Shown: positions 5,400-59,495 of the stretch, one piece after another
Position numbering within the stretch: the stretch's first letter is position 1
Layout: each line of letters opens with the position of its first letter
DNA from: Octopus vulgaris
Taxonomy: Eukaryota
Length of the DNA stretch: 64,000 nt
Assembly (NCBI GenBank): GCA_951406725.2
Contig: OX597821.1
Coordinates: 30,256,001-30,320,000 of the forward strand
Direction of reading: 5' to 3'
The notes under the pieces: generated by a model
Database searches by the model: none
What the model was told of the DNA's origin: nothing
What the model saw: the letters and a program-made list of their open reading frames with translations, nothing else
Program-made: the position numbers and the translations under genes

Positions 5400-5545
5400 G
5401 TTTATTTACTTGTGTTCCTTTCTGTTGATGAGCGTAGGCTCGAAACGTAAAAGACCTTTTCACCTTCCTGAGCGTCAAACTAGTACACATGCTTGTTGTT
5501 TATACACTTGTCTTCGTGTTTTGTTTTTTTTAAGTTTTAACTATA
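5400..5545 (+). mobile_element. Short pLTR-like hammerhead-bearing repeat
   Basis: Homologous to 59305-59495; ends in (TA)n. Confidence 0.65.
5418..5453 (+). ncRNA. Minimal type I hammerhead-like motif with atypical CUGUUGA core
   Basis: cttt-CTGTTGA-t-gagc(gtag)gctc-GAAAC-GTA-aaag. Confidence 0.55.
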
Positions 5546-5926
5546 TATATATATAAGAAATTAAAAAAAACAATACGCACACTTACATAGTTTTAATATA
5601 ATTTTTAATATATCGAGCGGTTTCGCTATCGCTGTTCATGATATTATGTTTTACTTATTTGAATATATATTTTTTTCTTAAGACGAAATTTGGTCCATGT
5701 TGTGTGTGATGAAATTCACGAGTGAATGACTTCACAAGGAGATAAATAAAGGGAGGTAATTGGTTGTCGTTATTATTGTTATCGTTGTGGGTAAGGGAGA
5801 TAACTGTTCAGCTTTCGGTAATGGCTGGGGATTATATATGTGTACAGAGACAAGTTTCAAAAACCTAGGGGATTTATGTACAGTGATGTAATCGTGAAAT
5901 GAAATATGTAAAAAGATAAAAGTTGG

Positions 5927-7190
5927 TTATGAGTGCATATTAAGACGTGTTTTGTATTTTTCAATGAAAAAAGTTTCTTTAGTTAAACGTTCTAGCTGAG
6001 AGTTTGCGTCTTTGCAGTGGTAGAAAGGGAAGACTGTGAAATTTGATTTGATATTACCCGCACATGTTTCTATATGTTAACTGAGAGGAATTTGACTATT
6101 TCGGGAAACGGATTTGCACCTTGTGCAGAGTCGTTCTCTTTCTCAAGGTCATACTCGTTTGTCCAATAGAGTGGTGTCCGCAACCCGAGCAGGTTATTAC
6201 ATAAATTAGGTTCTCAGAGGCACAGGCGAAACTAGTTTTAATTGTGAACCTCTGTCCTTGTTTGAAAAGGAAATCCTAGCCTTCAAGCAAGTTGGGGCAG
6301 GTTGCACAGTTTGGGCGTCCACATTTTTCAACCGTTGGTTTCATGATTGTTTTGTAAAGTTTCGCATTTGTTAGTAGTCTCTTTAGCGATTTGTCTTGTT
6401 TTTTGCATTTGATGAGTTTGTATGATTTCAGGATGTCGTTCATTTTAGGATCTCTAGTTAGTAAAGGAAGAGTTTGCACAATAGTGTTGAATGCCTCACT
6501 GTTTCTGGGGTTGTGTGTTGATATAAATAGTAATGTATTGGTTTGAAGTGTGGTGCTATGTTTTTTTGTTCTTAGTGTTTTTGTGTCTAATTGTTTGGCA
6601 CGTTTAATTTCCTCGTCGATAAGAGAGGGTGGATATTGTCTTTCAATAAATTTTGTTTTGAGGTCTTGAAGACGACGGTCCTGAGTTGTTCTATCAGACA
6701 CTATTGTGCAGATCCTTTTTGCTAAATTGAAAGGGATGTTTATTTTTATGTGTTTCGGGTGGCATGAGTTAAAAAGAAGATATTGTTCTGAATCAGTTGG
6801 TTTATAATAAATGTCAGTTAGGATTTCATTGTTAACTTTTTTATCATGATGTCTAAAAATGGAAGTTGTTCTTTGTTATATTCCATTGTGAATAGAATGT
6901 TACTATTTATGTAATTTAGTGTTGTTTTGAAATCCAAAAGTTAGTCGATGTTTTCCTTCTAGATGATAAAGCAGTCATCCAGGTATCGCTTCCAATTTTC
7001 TCTTATGTAGACGTAAAATGGGTAACCATATTTCTGAAGTGATACTTCATATAAGGTGAATTCAAAATAACCCATTATTAGGTTCACAAGCACAGGAGCT
7101 GCTTTCATCCACATCGCAATTCCGCATTTCTGACGATAGTATGGGTCATCAAATAGGAAATAATTGTTCTGAAGTATAAATTTAAGGATT
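5927..7190 (-). mobile_element. Penelope-like element (PLE) RT/GIY-YIG ORF remnant, 5' truncated and frameshifted
   Basis: RT motifs GIAM...ANL-like and WKRYLDDCF at about 6970-7130; CGRPNCATC linker (ORF 6276-6701); GIY-YIG-like LIYVITCSGCGHHSIGQT at about 6160-6215; stop codon at 5927. Confidence 0.9.
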
Positions 7191-7873
7191 TATGGTGTAC
7201 GATATCCAGGTGGAAAAAGAAATGATCTCACCCTACCTCCACGGACACTTGTCCTCAAGCCATGCCCCAGACATTGACACCCAAACGGCTCCCATAGTCA
7301 CCAGTACCCAACCCTCCACCTCTAACACTAATATATATATATATATATGTGTGTGTGTGTGTGTGTGTGTGTGTGTGTGTGTTTGTGTGTGTGTTTGTGT
7401 GTGTGTGTGTTATTTTTCTGCGTATGTTCCAGTGAAGAGGCAAAGCATTTCTTATGCAAAGGCAGAAGTCCGGGATTTGGAATTATTCAGTAATATTTTG
7501 CTAGATCATTTTGTATTTTTGTCTTCTGTCCTGGTACTCTATGAGCATTTAATGTGATTTTAGAGTCAAATTTTGGCTGTTATTTCCAGCGTGGCGGTAT
7601 CTGATAGATAGCCTAAATTTTAATTTTAATAATAATTATTGCATTTGAAGGTTTGTATTCCCATGCTGGCCACTTGATAAGATCGATATTTAAATTAACG
7701 ATTCTAACCTTATTTATACACACACACACACACACACACATACGCACATACACACACACACACACACACACACACACACACACACACATATATATATATA
7801 TATATATATATATATAATATATATATATATATATATATATATATATATACATATATATATGAGTGTATACAAA

Positions 7874-8310
7874 CAGAAGTGTCTGTGTGGTAAGTAGCTT
7901 GCTTACGAGACACATGGTTCCGGGTTCTGTCCCACTGCGTGGCACCCTGGGCAAGTGTCTTCTACTCTAGCATCGGGCTGACCAGAGTCTTGTGAGTGGA
8001 TTTGGTAGACGGAAACTGAAAGAAGCCCGTCGTATATATGTATATAAATAAATTAAATATATATATATATATATGTATGTTTGTATGTGTGTGTATATGT
8101 TTGTGTATCTGTGTTTGTCCCCCCCCCCAACATCGCTTGACAACCGATGCTGGTGTGTTTACGTCCACGTAACTTAGCGGTTCGGCAAAAAAGACCGATA
8201 GAATAAGTACTAGGCTTACAAAGAATAAGTCCTGGGATCGATTTGGTCGACTAAAAGCGGTGCTCCAGCGTAGCCACAGTCAAATAACTGAAACAAGTAA
8301 AAGAATAAAA
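7874..8310 (+). mobile_element. SINE family A
   Basis: Full head-to-tail match to the family consensus seen in this window. Confidence 0.9.
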
Positions 8311-9454
8311 AAGTATACGTACATACATATCAGTGTATGCACGCATGTGTGTGTATGTATATGCAGTGCATATACTGTCTTTATACGATACTACCTATTA
8401 TAGCACAACATAAGGATAGCCATTTATAGAAAAAAACCCTCTCGTAACTACCCATATTTTTGTAACACCTACATCCATTAAATTTTATCATAAAATTACA
8501 ATTCCCTTACTCTCTGTTTTACACTTCCTACACATCATGTACGAACAGAATCACACAACGCCAATAATCCGCCGTCTATAAACTGCCGTCTCTTCCTCGT
8601 TATTGATTCCCATGTGTTGGGGTTTCTTTACTTCAATCTTTTCTTTCCCTCTTTTACTCCAATCTGTAACATATTTATTCAATCTTAGTTTTATATCTTC
8701 ATTCTCTTACAAGATTTTTTCCTCCTCATTTTCTTTAGTTCTTGTTGTTTTCCTTTAGAATCCTCAATCATTCGAACTTAGACTATTTCAAACTTGATAA
8801 ATCTCTTTCCGTTTCTACATTTCATTTGCATGTACACATAATCGGATTGCGACTTGTTAGTATTTATAAATATAAATTTCACAAAAAGTACCTAAGCGGA
8901 AAAACAAACAAACGTAGTGTTAAATAAACAAAATAATTATTAAAAACAAAATTTAAACAAGCAGTAAGAGTTACGTTGCGTGTGCAGTGGATGCTGAATT
9001 AATTAAACGCCGCTCCCTGTTCTTTACTAATACCAGCTCCATTTTAAAGCAGTAGCAATATCAGAACTAACACTACACGATAGAAAGATTACATTTATGT
9101 TATGATAAAACACTCCTGTTAATACTGATATCTTTTGCAATTATTTTTAGAAGATATGTCTGTGCTGGTAAGAAGCAGTACAGGAGATTTTGCTTGTGAT
9201 ATTCGCTGTGGTATTCAGAGGTAATTTGGATTTTAGTGGTGTTGGTTGTGGTTCTTGTTGCACTGCTGGTAGGTGTGGTTTTAGCTACAATAGTTTAGGT
9301 TTCAGTAGTGATAGTAGTTGTGGTTTTGTCTGTTGAGGTGATAGTTGCAATTGTTATGGCTTTGGCTGTTGTCGTGATGGTAACTGTGGTTGTTGTAGTT
9401 TTGACTGCACTTGTAATGGTTGTAGTCTTGGTTGTAGTTGTTTTGTTTGTTCCT

Positions 9455-9737
9455 TCTCGAGCCATTCCTGGCTCATAAGGGCCGGTTTCCCGGTTTCCTT
9501 GGCGAATGCGTTCCCCACCTGGACGGGACGCCGGTCCGTCGCAGGTGAGCTAGAAGAGGAAAGAGTGAGAGAAAGTTGTGGCGAAAGAGTCAGCAGAGGT
9601 TTCGCCAATACCTTCTACCAGAGCTGCGTCGAGCTTAGGTGTTTCGCTCATAAACACACACATTGCACGGTCTGAGATTCGAACCCTCGATCCCTCGACC
9701 GTTAGTCCGCTGCTCTAACCACTAGACCATGTACCTC
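9455..9737 (-). mobile_element. SINE family C (tail type 1)
   Basis: tRNA-like head (reverse complement of gattcgaacc...ctaaccact); closely similar to 13013-13300. Confidence 0.85.
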
Positions 9738-58323: not shown

Positions 58324-58702
58324 TCGTCAGAAATGCAATTAATTAGATCGATTCGAGCGTCAAAAACACGAGCGGTCCAACCAATTACATTTTTAGTTAC
58401 GTCTCAAATTCCGCGCCAAAAGCATGCCTAGACTCCATTGGAAACGTATGCCGCATCAAATAAAATATTAACTGCCGCATGGTTAAATTTATAAAATTAT
58501 AAATGAGGGTGAAAAATCGATATTAATTTAATAATACCATTAATTTAACACCAAGTGGCTTAGCACAAACAACTACGAGAAAATACAAATTTATACATTA
58601 GTGCTAAAAATAGCTCCGAAGCAACCACAGAAGATCCGTTTCCAACTAGAACCAACACACATTTAACTGAAGGAAAGTGAAATACAACGAATAAATAGAT
58701 TG

Positions 58703-58778
58703 ACTCTATACAATTGTTTCATTACTAATGCAATATGTAGTTTTACTTACACTTGCATCCATAAATCTTCGGTAGAGT
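58703..58778 (-). ncRNA. Type I hammerhead, array copy 2
   Basis: Identical motif 455 nt away. Confidence 0.75.
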
Positions 58779-59103
58779 TTGTCAGAAATGCAATTAATTA
58801 GATCGATTCGAGCGTCAAAAACACGAGCGGTCCAACCAATTACATTTTTAGTTATGTCTCAAATTCCGCGCCAAAAGCATGCATAGACTCCATTGGAAAC
58901 GTATGCCGCATCAAATAAAATATTAACTGCCGCATGGTTAAATTTATAAAATTATAAATGAGGGTGAAAAATCGATATTAATTTAATAATACCATTAATT
59001 TAACACCAATATATATATATATATGTATATATATATATATATATATATATATATATATATATATATATATGTATATATATATATATATACATATGTATAT
59101 ACA

Positions 59104-59220
59104 TACGAGGGGTGTATGAATACTCGTGAGTCTCCCAAGAAATCGTATTTTGATGAAGGTACAAGACTTCAAAGTTCAAAGGCTTTGAAGGCTCAAAACT
59201 TTTTATACAACCCTCGTGTA
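59104..59220. mobile_element. Mariner-derived mini-MITE in (TA)n
   Basis: ta-cgaggggtgtatgaa ... tttatacaaccctcg-(tg)ta terminal inverted repeats. Confidence 0.65.
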
Positions 59221-59304
59221 TATATATATATATATATATATATATATATATATATATATATATATATATATAGAGAGAGAGAGAGAGAGAGAGAGAGAGA
59301 GCGA

Positions 59305-59495
59305 GATCCTTAGCCACTACACACATTTTTTGTCTCCTTGTTTCTCTCCTTGTTTCTTTTGTGTCCCTTTCTGTAGAAGAGCGTAGACTCGAAACGTAAA
59401 ATACTTTTTCTATTCCTGAGCGTTATACTAATACATCTGCTTGTTTTGTACACCACCTGTCTTCATCTTTGTTTTTTTTTTCGTAAACCCTCCCT
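59305..59495 (+). mobile_element. Short pLTR-like repeat with a hammerhead-like motif at 59367-59402
   Basis: cttt-CTGTAGA-a-gagc(gtag)actc-GAAAC-GTA-aaat; homologous to 5400-5545. Confidence 0.65.

Follow-up and report, generated by a model that had tools for sequence, protein, structure and literature searches.

Minimal type I hammerheads (HHRs) were described in metazoan Penelope-like elements (PLEs) by Cervera and de la Pena 2014 (PMC4209133), who reported low activity. The supplementary alignment of 56 motifs in that paper holds no cephalopod and has only C-G or U-A at positions 3 and 8. In the anole Poseidon element PAc, insertion in vitro did not require HHR cleavage, nor did any RNA-seq read end at the HHR cleavage site (PMC11167929). 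Animal retrozymes are proposed to derive from pseudo-LTRs (pLTRs) in the available portions of two further sources (PMC7229834; bioRxiv 10.64898/2026.07.22.740005), and no cephalopod is covered in those portions. Canonical HHRs are used by the Schistosoma retroposons Sm/Sj alpha, whose tandem arrays place the promoter 3'-terminally within each cleaved unit (PMC6765202). The general picture of PLE and retrozyme hammerheads is already published (PMC4209133; bioRxiv 10.64898/2026.07.22.740005). PLE hammerheads cleave poorly alone, and in the one reconstituted system insertion could do without cleavage.

The window analysed here comprises 64,000 nt of Octopus vulgaris (GCA_951406725.2, contig OX597821.1, 30,256,001-30,320,000, forward strand). 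A strict descriptor required a perfect core and a palindromic stem III, and a second form allowed one core mismatch. A scored descriptor was used at a threshold of 26, which was picked after the results at 22, 24, 26 and 28 had been seen. An initial descriptor without the extra nucleotide after A9 matched only site 24049 and one unlisted long-stem match, and a general repeat search of the window was swamped by microsatellites.

A preliminary description had listed 16 motif sites in about 8 families with unrelated stems. All 16 lie inside copies of HHR repeat families, of which repeat comparison distinguishes nine: A (5418, 59367), A' (11870, 28209), B (23921, 24049), C (24714, 25638), D (34352), E (45751, 49648), F (39090, 50008), G (58248, 58703) and I (38951). 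Nine sites (5418, 11870, 24714, 25638, 34352, 39090, 45751, 58248 and 58703) are near-intact and score at least 26. Weaker matches are given by the remaining seven: stem II of 24049 contains one mismatch, 38951 is a 3' half, and 23921, 28209, 49648, 50008 and 59367 are decayed. The strict descriptor finds 2 of the 16 sites (shuffled level 0), and 4 are found when one core mismatch is allowed (shuffled level 0.33). Three further sites had been overlooked, namely 5610-5645, 26007-26093 and the half motif 45269-45304, all on the minus strand. The features are collected in Table 1.

Table 1. Hammerhead-bearing repeats and associated features of the window
Feature	Position	Strand	Remarks
Family A unit, ~200 nt between (TA)n runs	5380..5545 (limits approximate)	+	Antisense to adjoining PLE
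Family A HHR	5418-5453	+	A6U core change, fixed in family
Family P, 3' pLTR of PLE remnant	5555..5929 (limits approximate)	-	
Family P, HHR of PLE remnant	5610..5645	-	Position 8 and palindrome decayed in this copy
PLE remnant ORF, 5'-truncated, frameshifted	5930..7186	-	RT, thumb, Cys linker, C-terminal GIY-YIG
Family A' HHR	11870..11904	-	Canonical core intact
Family B inverted arm	23885..23956	-	
Family B HHR	23921-23956	-	Lacks 5' strand of stem I; core mutated
Family B direct arm	24049..24126	+	
Family B HHR	24049-24090	+	Stem II 2-3 bp; 9-nt near-palindrome
Family C left arm, 567-nt head-to-head inverted pair	24624..25190	-	HHR 24714-24776
Family C right arm	25224..25790	+	HHR 25638-25700
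HHR of family D homologue, decayed	26007..26093	-	Stem I and palindrome differ from D (one copy examined)
Family A' HHR	28209..28243	-	Stems II and III decayed
Family D HHR	34352..34436	+	Stem I 7 bp; long stem II; 12-nt palindrome
Family I HHR, 3' half only	38945..38968	-	5'-truncated at (TA)n run
Family F HHR	39090..39141	-	8-nt palindrome with one change
Family E short inverted arm	45269..45304	-	Begins inside stem III
Family E element	45306..45882	+	tRNA-Arg-like head 45306-45372; intact HHR 45751-45796; PLE-type tail
Family E element without tail	49597..49870	-	Head 49805-49870; (AAT)n; decayed HHR 49648-49693
Family F-like HHR	50008..50055	-	Heavily decayed
Family G tandem, young	58143..59009	-	HHRs 58248-58323 and 58703-58778 intact
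Family A HHR	59367..59401	+	Decayed; U at position 6

Family majorities mend defects present in single window copies. The core ascribed to the motifs is absent from four sites (5418, 59367, 23921 and 50008). At the family level the core boxes and the UH cleavage triplet are conserved, the core being canonical, with U or C at position 4, in A', B, C, D, E, F, G and I. Stem I pairing and the palindromic stem III, both of which had been claimed, likewise hold at the family level and are lost in some window copies. A G10.1-C11.1 pair together with the extra nucleotide after A9 is found in A, A' and E; D, I and the family of the PLE remnant (P) have G-C at 10.1-11.1 without the extra base. In C, F and G the base of stem II is mismatched, as C-A throughout family C and as U-U in both window HHRs of family G. 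Other copies of family I carry a whole HHR. Further upstream, family D holds another HHR-like match (score 26-27), whose palindrome is poor and which is probably spurious.

The proposed comparison of motif density with dinucleotide-shuffled controls came out clearly, with 9 matches against a mean of 0.11 and a maximum of 1 in 100 local shuffles of the window. Closure of the motif by stem I and pairing of stem II were also above chance in shuffle tests. When the scan lacked any stem III term, 8 of 11 clusters were perfectly self-complementary (29 of 32 inner pairs), with 0 matches in 3 shuffles of all DNA examined; the stem III palindrome is therefore genuine and no descriptor artefact. The Rfam matches listed for the window (150 of 193, E<=5) include no hammerhead family. 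The description of the window as dense did not survive comparison with the rest of the genome: 141 motifs per Mb are found here against 92 per Mb (bootstrap 46-154) in 26 arbitrary 10-kb regions at round-number positions, where 24 matches lie in 260 kb (shuffles 0-1). This density rules out the window as an HHR hotspot and, extrapolated from these 26 regions, gives roughly 1-4x10^5 motifs genome-wide. A further 47 distinct motifs outside the window families lie in 703 kb of flanks, with 1 in one shuffle. Judged by sequence, the motifs are genuine RNA motifs of the self-cleaving type but mostly decayed, and they are no denser than is usual in this genome.

The PLE remnant suggested at 5927-7190 is real. 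It was read together with the motif at 5418, but that motif is on the opposite strand, in an independent family A unit bounded by (TA)n, and is ruled out as the ribozyme of the remnant's pLTR. The remnant has an HHR of its own, of a family (P) whose core carries A3-U8 and whose stem II and palindrome measure 2 bp and 6 nt. A second ORF-bearing family, Q, is arranged as pLTR-ORF-pLTR with an inverted truncated copy and a sense HHR in each pLTR; it is very young, with 41 of 41 scored places identical. Both P and Q have a single ORF with RT and C-terminal GIY-YIG motifs, their proteins being about 25% identical to each other, and a CX2-5CxxC linker and (TA)n targets are seen in these PLEs. The proteins were assigned by visual inspection of motifs, by tblastn between copies and by their Atlas neighbours; the Q protein resembles RVT_1, HTH_animal and GIY-YIG clusters, and the fragment in the window fell below the recognition line of the Atlas. 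Pfam gave no match for the protein pieces of P and Q, a PDB sequence search gave nothing significant, and among the matches listed for the Q pLTR there was no RNA record.

The proposed link of the motifs to PLEs holds, with sense-strand HHRs in the pLTRs of two ORF-bearing families and with PLE insertion anatomy in the short families. Their 3' ends are fixed and mostly lie in (TA)n, the arms are inverted (in B, C, E and I) or tandem, tails are one-sided, and the HHR sits 40-190 nt from the element 3' end. In family A, 28 of 34 arms meet (TA)n 90-96 nt past the cleavage site, and in family D 14 of 20 end at 123-142 nt. The 3' ends of family B are bimodal (22 of 35 at 36-46 nt, 10 of 35 at 96-120 nt), and family P also has two classes, about 60-70 nt apart; arm counts for P and F are rough, including unrelated matches to the short search motifs. 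Several families look non-autonomous, as had been suggested: with the P and Q proteins as queries and 1.5-kb flanks, a sense PLE ORF was found upstream in 0 of 195 loci from seven families, and families A-G yielded no autonomous partner.

Position 6 is never A in family A (30 of 30 copies), where A6U is fixed. Loss of A6 is expected to cripple hammerhead catalysis. The family is abundant despite this change, an observation that counts against the explanation by PLE hammerheads.

Family E joins a head with A and B boxes to an HHR. Among 29 genomic tRNA loci the best match to the head is Arg(TCG) (z 10.3), followed by Arg(TCT) (z 8.2). Rfam made no tRNA call on the head; ARAGORN called nothing in the window and gave one loose call in three for the head. 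No lone head was found outside E loci, and an independent SINE was rejected on this ground. In the element at 45306..45882 the (AAT)n linker is broken by other sequence. The 3' end is a fixed PLE-type tail of about 33 nt rather than a LINE-derived end or a poly(A) or simple-repeat tail; it is one-sided, being present on 26 of 30 arms matched by the query and missing from 7 of 8 inverted partner arms. As an indirect pointer on Pol III transcription, a four-T run occurs in the 111-nt HHR segment of 2 of 30 family E copies, with a similar level in F and P. Confirmation of family E would place PLEs beside LINEs among the mobilisers of tRNA-headed SINEs.

The pair at positions 3 and 8 is found in all four Watson-Crick forms among the families: C-G in most, U-A in several, A-U in 22 of 25 family P copies and G-C in Q. 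In the literature, of which our coverage was incomplete, we found no report of A3-U8 or G3-C8 as natural. The majority states of P and Q, which were retrieved by homology and independently of the score, have positions 3 and 8 both changed. Among the 47 flank HHRs, 45 keep a Watson-Crick 3-8 pair, a figure that is partly circular as the score rewards this pairing. The covariation anticipated within the stems was found, with 4 double-sided pairs in a 7-sequence clade (covariation score reached by 4 of 500 shuffles) and, from A to A', replacement of both bases of the outer stem I pair (0 of 500); the sequences in both tests were picked by descriptor and are related, so that the counts lean towards structure. 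No variant at a frequency of at least 10% was seen in the stems or core of Q in four public runs. The 3-8 pair is known from the active hammerhead conformation. Catalysis therefore appears to be under selection in the source lineages, as the two positions vary in concert between families and the pair belongs to that conformation.

We consider it likely that the motifs derive, as type I hammerheads, from the pLTRs of many PLE families and of short non-coding derivatives that borrow PLE proteins. The RT-GIY-YIG protein nicks AT-rich DNA and begins reverse transcription at either of two sites inside the RNA, and this produces the one-sided tail (PMC11167929). Most 5'-truncated insertions would carry the HHR because it lies only 40-190 nt upstream of the start of reverse transcription, and the density would therefore be a by-product, most copies being dead. 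In source elements the HHR may act on tandem or read-through transcripts, cutting them as a dimer that forms by way of the family-specific palindrome, probably with the aid of the PLE protein. In head-to-head arms the two HHRs are on opposite strands and therefore cannot pair in cis.

Chance matches in AT-rich repeat DNA are an extremely improbable source of the motifs: loose descriptors do reach 1 match per shuffled window, and matches cluster in repeat families and hence are not independent, but the excess over shuffles in the window, the 260 kb and the flanks is large and the palindromes emerge unasked. The short families could instead be circular-RNA retrozymes, whose tandem transcripts are cut to monomers that, once ligated into circles, serve as templates for rolling-circle reverse transcription. 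For this there is precedent (PMC7229834), and family G forms young 493-nt head-to-tail arrays without a PLE ORF (period 455 in the window), a 353-359-nt array at locus L221 holds seven identical HHRs, and tandem copies of family C are spaced by 552 nt. The retrozyme-like layout of the preliminary description thus applies to family G and a few others but not to most families. Most copies of A, B, D, E and F, however, stand singly or head-to-head, and their fixed 3' ends, which lie far past the cleavage site, would not be predicted from a randomly primed circle; we regard circular intermediates as possible but unlikely.

The short families might also be merely 5'-truncated pLTRs of autonomous PLEs with unsampled ORFs, so that true non-autonomous elements would not exist. 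The 5' ends do vary continuously in C, D and F, and the ORF search was limited to two divergent queries and short flanks; against this stand the 195 loci without a sense ORF, the tRNA-like start of E, the head-to-tail units of G and the ~100 nt upstream of the cleavage site that are all most family A copies share, and we think the proposal rather unlikely. We judge it improbable that the motif persists as a module for RNA dimerisation or for protein binding, with catalysis weak or lost and the variant cores reflecting drift in a relaxed ribozyme. Such a module would agree with A6U in an abundant family, the stem II mismatch in three families, the dispensable cleavage (PMC11167929) and low activity (PMC4209133) of known elements, and the multiplication of Naiad PLEs without canonical HHRs (PMC8557442), but not with the retained 3-8 pair in the flanks, the joint changes in P and Q, or the uniform stems and core of Q.

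Within the preferred reading of PLE hammerheads and their derivatives, a more far-reaching version is offered tentatively, with doubt prevailing. The genome would hold ~10^5 PLE hammerheads whose source lineages explore the catalytic core. Among these hammerheads would be a functional A6U variant and, in ORF-bearing PLEs that are young or abundant, functional ribozymes with G3-C8 and A3-U8, the first of their kind from nature. The family-specific palindromes would be dimer addresses, letting RNAs be cut with their own kind only, and family E would be a tRNA-promoter SINE moved by a Penelope protein and not by a LINE. With its four forms, one of them in a very young ORF-bearing family, the 3-8 pair lets natural covariation serve as a test for selection on catalysis, and the families supply matched natural core variants for assays. 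Descriptors that fix C3-G8 would overlook whole families.

Compared with the motifs of PMC4209133, the octopus families add A3-U8 and G3-C8, both in ORF-bearing elements, and A6U fixed in one family; the genome-wide estimate compares with about 9,000 motifs in Xenopus (PMC4209133), the descriptors being different. The elements resemble EN+ PLEs (the Neptune/Nematis type with the CX2-5CxxC linker, PMC8557442; PAc, PMC11167929) in RT with C-terminal GIY-YIG, an HHR in the pLTR, a partial tandem of pLTRs, an inverted 5'-truncated copy, a one-sided tail and AT-rich or (TA)n targets. In PAc, C3G/G8C is an engineered partial rescue, whereas G3-C8 is the natural state of family Q. As in animal non-LTR retrozymes (PMC7229834; bioRxiv 10.64898/2026.07.22.740005), HHR units that are non-coding and a few hundred bases long, in part tandemly arranged, occur alongside PLEs. 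Unlike those retrozymes, most octopus families are single or head-to-head with PLE tails, and the 493-nt unit of family G exceeds the range of 150-450 bp given in PMC7229834. Like the SINE-like hammerhead retroposons Sm/Sj alpha (reviewed in PMC6765202), family E combines a Pol III-type head with an HHR, but its head lies 5' of a minimal HHR, and its copies are dispersed and have a PLE-type tail with inverted arms.

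The 16 type I hammerhead ribozyme (HHR) sites listed in the preliminary description all fall into nine HHR repeat families in homology searches, and to this extent the list stands; as individual motifs, 9 of the 16 reach a score of at least 26 with the scored descriptor, against 0.11 (maximum 1) in 100 shuffles, so near-intact motifs do exceed shuffled sequence. A strict type I descriptor recovered 2 of the sites, or 4 with one core mismatch allowed (shuffle controls 0 and 0.33, respectively). Majority sequences from the top 25-30 loci per family restore the defects of window copies in stem II (families D and E) and in the palindrome (F), and in the family of the half motif at 38951, 12 of the 15 loci retrieved carry the whole HHR. 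The proposed palindromic stem III was confirmed by a scan without a stem III term, where the palindrome was perfect in 8 of 11 clusters and none of three shuffles produced a match. Related families differ by double-sided changes in the HHR. A homologue of D at 26007-26093 has a stem I and a palindrome that both differ from those of D. The sequences counted were picked by descriptor and are related, so this covariation supports the ribozyme fold but does not prove it. The base of stem II is mismatched in families C, F and G; U-U at this position occurs in nature (PMC3088659).

The window (G000:C8:30256001-30320000) has 36% GC and many microsatellites; the genome comprises 2.80 Gb in 227 contigs. 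First-look candidates, which are not copy numbers, were 4334 for E, 3768 for A, 2662 for F, 1703 for I, 932 for B, 882 for D, 765 for G and 483 for C, with no separate search for A'. Density was estimated from 260 kb, sampled on 12 contigs as twenty-six 10-kb regions with round-number coordinates. These gave 24 HHR matches, 18 of them distinct (7 from a single array), against 0-1 in ten shuffles, i.e. 92 per Mb (bootstrap 46-154) or, by extrapolation, 1.3-4.3x10^5 near-intact motifs in the genome. The window, at 141 per Mb, lies within this interval and is not unusually dense as had been thought. A further 47 distinct HHRs, belonging to none of the window families, lay in the flanks of 220 loci, compared with 1 in a single shuffle. 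Xenopus tropicalis is reported to have about 9,000 minimal HHRs (PMC4209133) and the 28-Gb axolotl genome (bioRxiv 2026.07.22.740005) 126,247 (PMC7229834), a comparison that is only rough because the descriptors differ. A published octopus repeat annotation assigns 6.83% of the genome to Penelope-like elements (PLEs); the words 'hammerhead' and 'ribozyme' are absent from its text and supplement.

The suspected PLE remnant at about 5927-7190 was recovered as pieces from RT to GIY-YIG, 80-89% identical to open stretches of other copies. The 5418 motif was rejected as its ribozyme, being on the opposite strand inside a separate 200-nt family A unit flanked by (TA)n runs. The remnant has a sense HHR of its own in the pseudo-LTR (pLTR) of its family, P, for which the genome holds 1758 candidates. 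Among 25 copies, 22 carry A at position 3 and U at position 8, together with G10.1-C11.1, a 2-bp stem II, a 6-nt palindrome and a 5-bp stem I; this majority is not query bias, since the query copy is itself mutated at position 8. The core 3-8 pair, usually C3-G8, is present in all four Watson-Crick forms in this genome. G3-C8 was first met in an arbitrary region (L230), with a 7-bp stem I and a 5-bp stem II, and belongs to family Q, where 41 of 41 scored places out of 1948 candidates are 100% identical over 201 nt. Two loci carry a pLTR-ORF-pLTR tandem plus an inverted truncated copy, with a sense HHR per pLTR (about 1.1 kb, with microsatellite-like tracts) and open frames of 777 and 646 aa (L241) and 524 aa (L242). 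The Atlas clusters nearest to the Q protein are nameless; named clusters, at 0.95-0.96, carry RVT_1, HTH_animal and GIY-YIG. An older Q subfamily has the same core and a different loop II. Across four public runs, each carrying a different organism label, 0 of 12 substitution rows (at least 10%) in the contigs fall in the Q stems or core, with lower 5' depth. Several families have U3-A8, with the L228 example lying a short way 3' of the remnant of a P-like endonuclease.

Features located in the window (plain coordinates) and at other loci (L-numbers)
Feature	Location	Strand	Description
PLE remnant (family P)	5930-7186	-	Frameshifted RT, thumb, Cys linker, GIY-YIG pieces
Sense HHR of remnant	5610-5645	-	In family P pLTR
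Family Q	L241 (G000:C4:22952500-22961500), L242, L230:8180-10000		Very young ORF-bearing PLE, natural G3-C8
U3-A8 cores	L047:2203-2248, L080:3140-3187, L179:2789-2836, L104:930-976, L292:2224, L228:7428-7469		
HHR array	L221:2300-4550	5 on one, 2 on the other	Seven canonical type I HHRs, all identical, repeating every 353-359 nt; retrozyme-like
Second HHR-like match	L095:1730, L096:1452, L105:1452, L117:1730		Weak, upstream in family D; probably spurious
B-box-like stretch	45725-45745		Second one, E body, just 5' of HHR
Split linker	45480-45607		Unrelated sequence in (AAT)n of E copy; like nested inserts in L011, L021, L023
Hairpin	23513-23606		Near-perfect, ~30 bp per arm, short loop; MITE-like or PLE inversion junction
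zf-RVT	63102-63719	-	205 aa, Pfam E 1.6e-09; probably LINE ORF2 remnant
SINE-like repeat	10022-10577, 55864-56299		Abundant; tandem copies (184 and 219 nt)
104-nt unit x3	43173-43488		96% alike; no HHR in scored scan

The short families had been taken for non-autonomous elements, which agrees with 0 of 195 A-G loci having a sense PLE ORF upstream, as judged with P and Q proteins as the only queries and 1.5-kb flanks; five of these loci have PLE matches elsewhere. Their 3' ends are fixed and mostly enter (TA)n, lying 90-96 nt beyond the cleavage site in 28 of 34 family A arms, 123-142 nt in 14 of 20 D arms, and 36-46 nt (22 of 35) or 96-120 nt (10 of 35) in B. Copies are paired head to head in families B, C, E and I, and G forms 493-nt arrays (98-100% identical). 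In family E, a tRNA-like head followed by an (AAT)n linker precedes 22 of the 39 HHR bodies at E loci; the two copies in the window have it, as do 2 of the 4 copies from the arbitrary regions, one of them only in part. Outside E loci the head was never seen by itself; within them, 9 heads lack a same-strand body. Among 29 genomic tRNA loci of seven isotypes the best match is tRNA-Arg, and Rfam does not call the head a tRNA. A tail of about 33 nt ends 26 of 30 arms matched by the query and is absent from 7 of 8 inverted partner arms, the eighth having a tail that its partner lacks. This is the PLE tail described in PMC8557442 and PMC11167929, unlike a LINE-type end. In L004, L005, L013, L028 and L030 the inverted arms link (AAT)n almost straight to the 5' strand of stem I; the skip of about 55 nt may reflect a template jump or a processing site.

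We consider it likely, for the reading as a whole, that PLE proteins copy not only the RNAs of their own elements but also those of passengers. Copying would begin at a fixed site inside the RNA, a short way 3' of the HHR, and insertion would target AT-rich DNA; with the start so placed, HHRs would pile up as passengers and then decay. The anatomy and covariation belonging to this mechanism are present in the loci, and its enzymology would be that of the anole element. In source elements we infer that the HHR cleaves as a dimer joined by the palindrome, probably with protein help, and that mobilisation occurs in trans. Against this mechanism, HHR cleavage is dispensable for insertion in vitro (PMC11167929), inverted arms are unable to dimerise in cis, and a family with A6U thrives: 30 family A copies have U 27, C 2, G 1 and A 0 at position 6, position 7 differs from one subfamily to another, and A', the sister family, is canonical. 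Since a natural A6C ribozyme has low activity (PMC3088659), the family A element may either tolerate the change in its HHR or be successful with a ribozyme that is dead. For some families, the HHR may likewise be a non-catalytic module, and the short units may be circular retrozymes or mere truncation products of longer elements.

The motif set as first described is of an already-known kind; its distinguishing features are its scale, a family with a tRNA-like head, and core swaps that occur naturally in families with an ORF. A literature search gave no report of cephalopod hammerheads, nor of natural A3-U8 or G3-C8; Lunse et al. 2017 (PLE hammerhead variants), Przybilski and Hammann 2007 and the supplementary core-variant figures of PMC3088659 lay outside it and may alter priority. 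Natural U3-A8 is already published (PMC3088659, PMC4209133). C3G/G8C is known from the element of PMC11167929 as an engineered partial rescue, whereas in octopus family Q it is the natural state.
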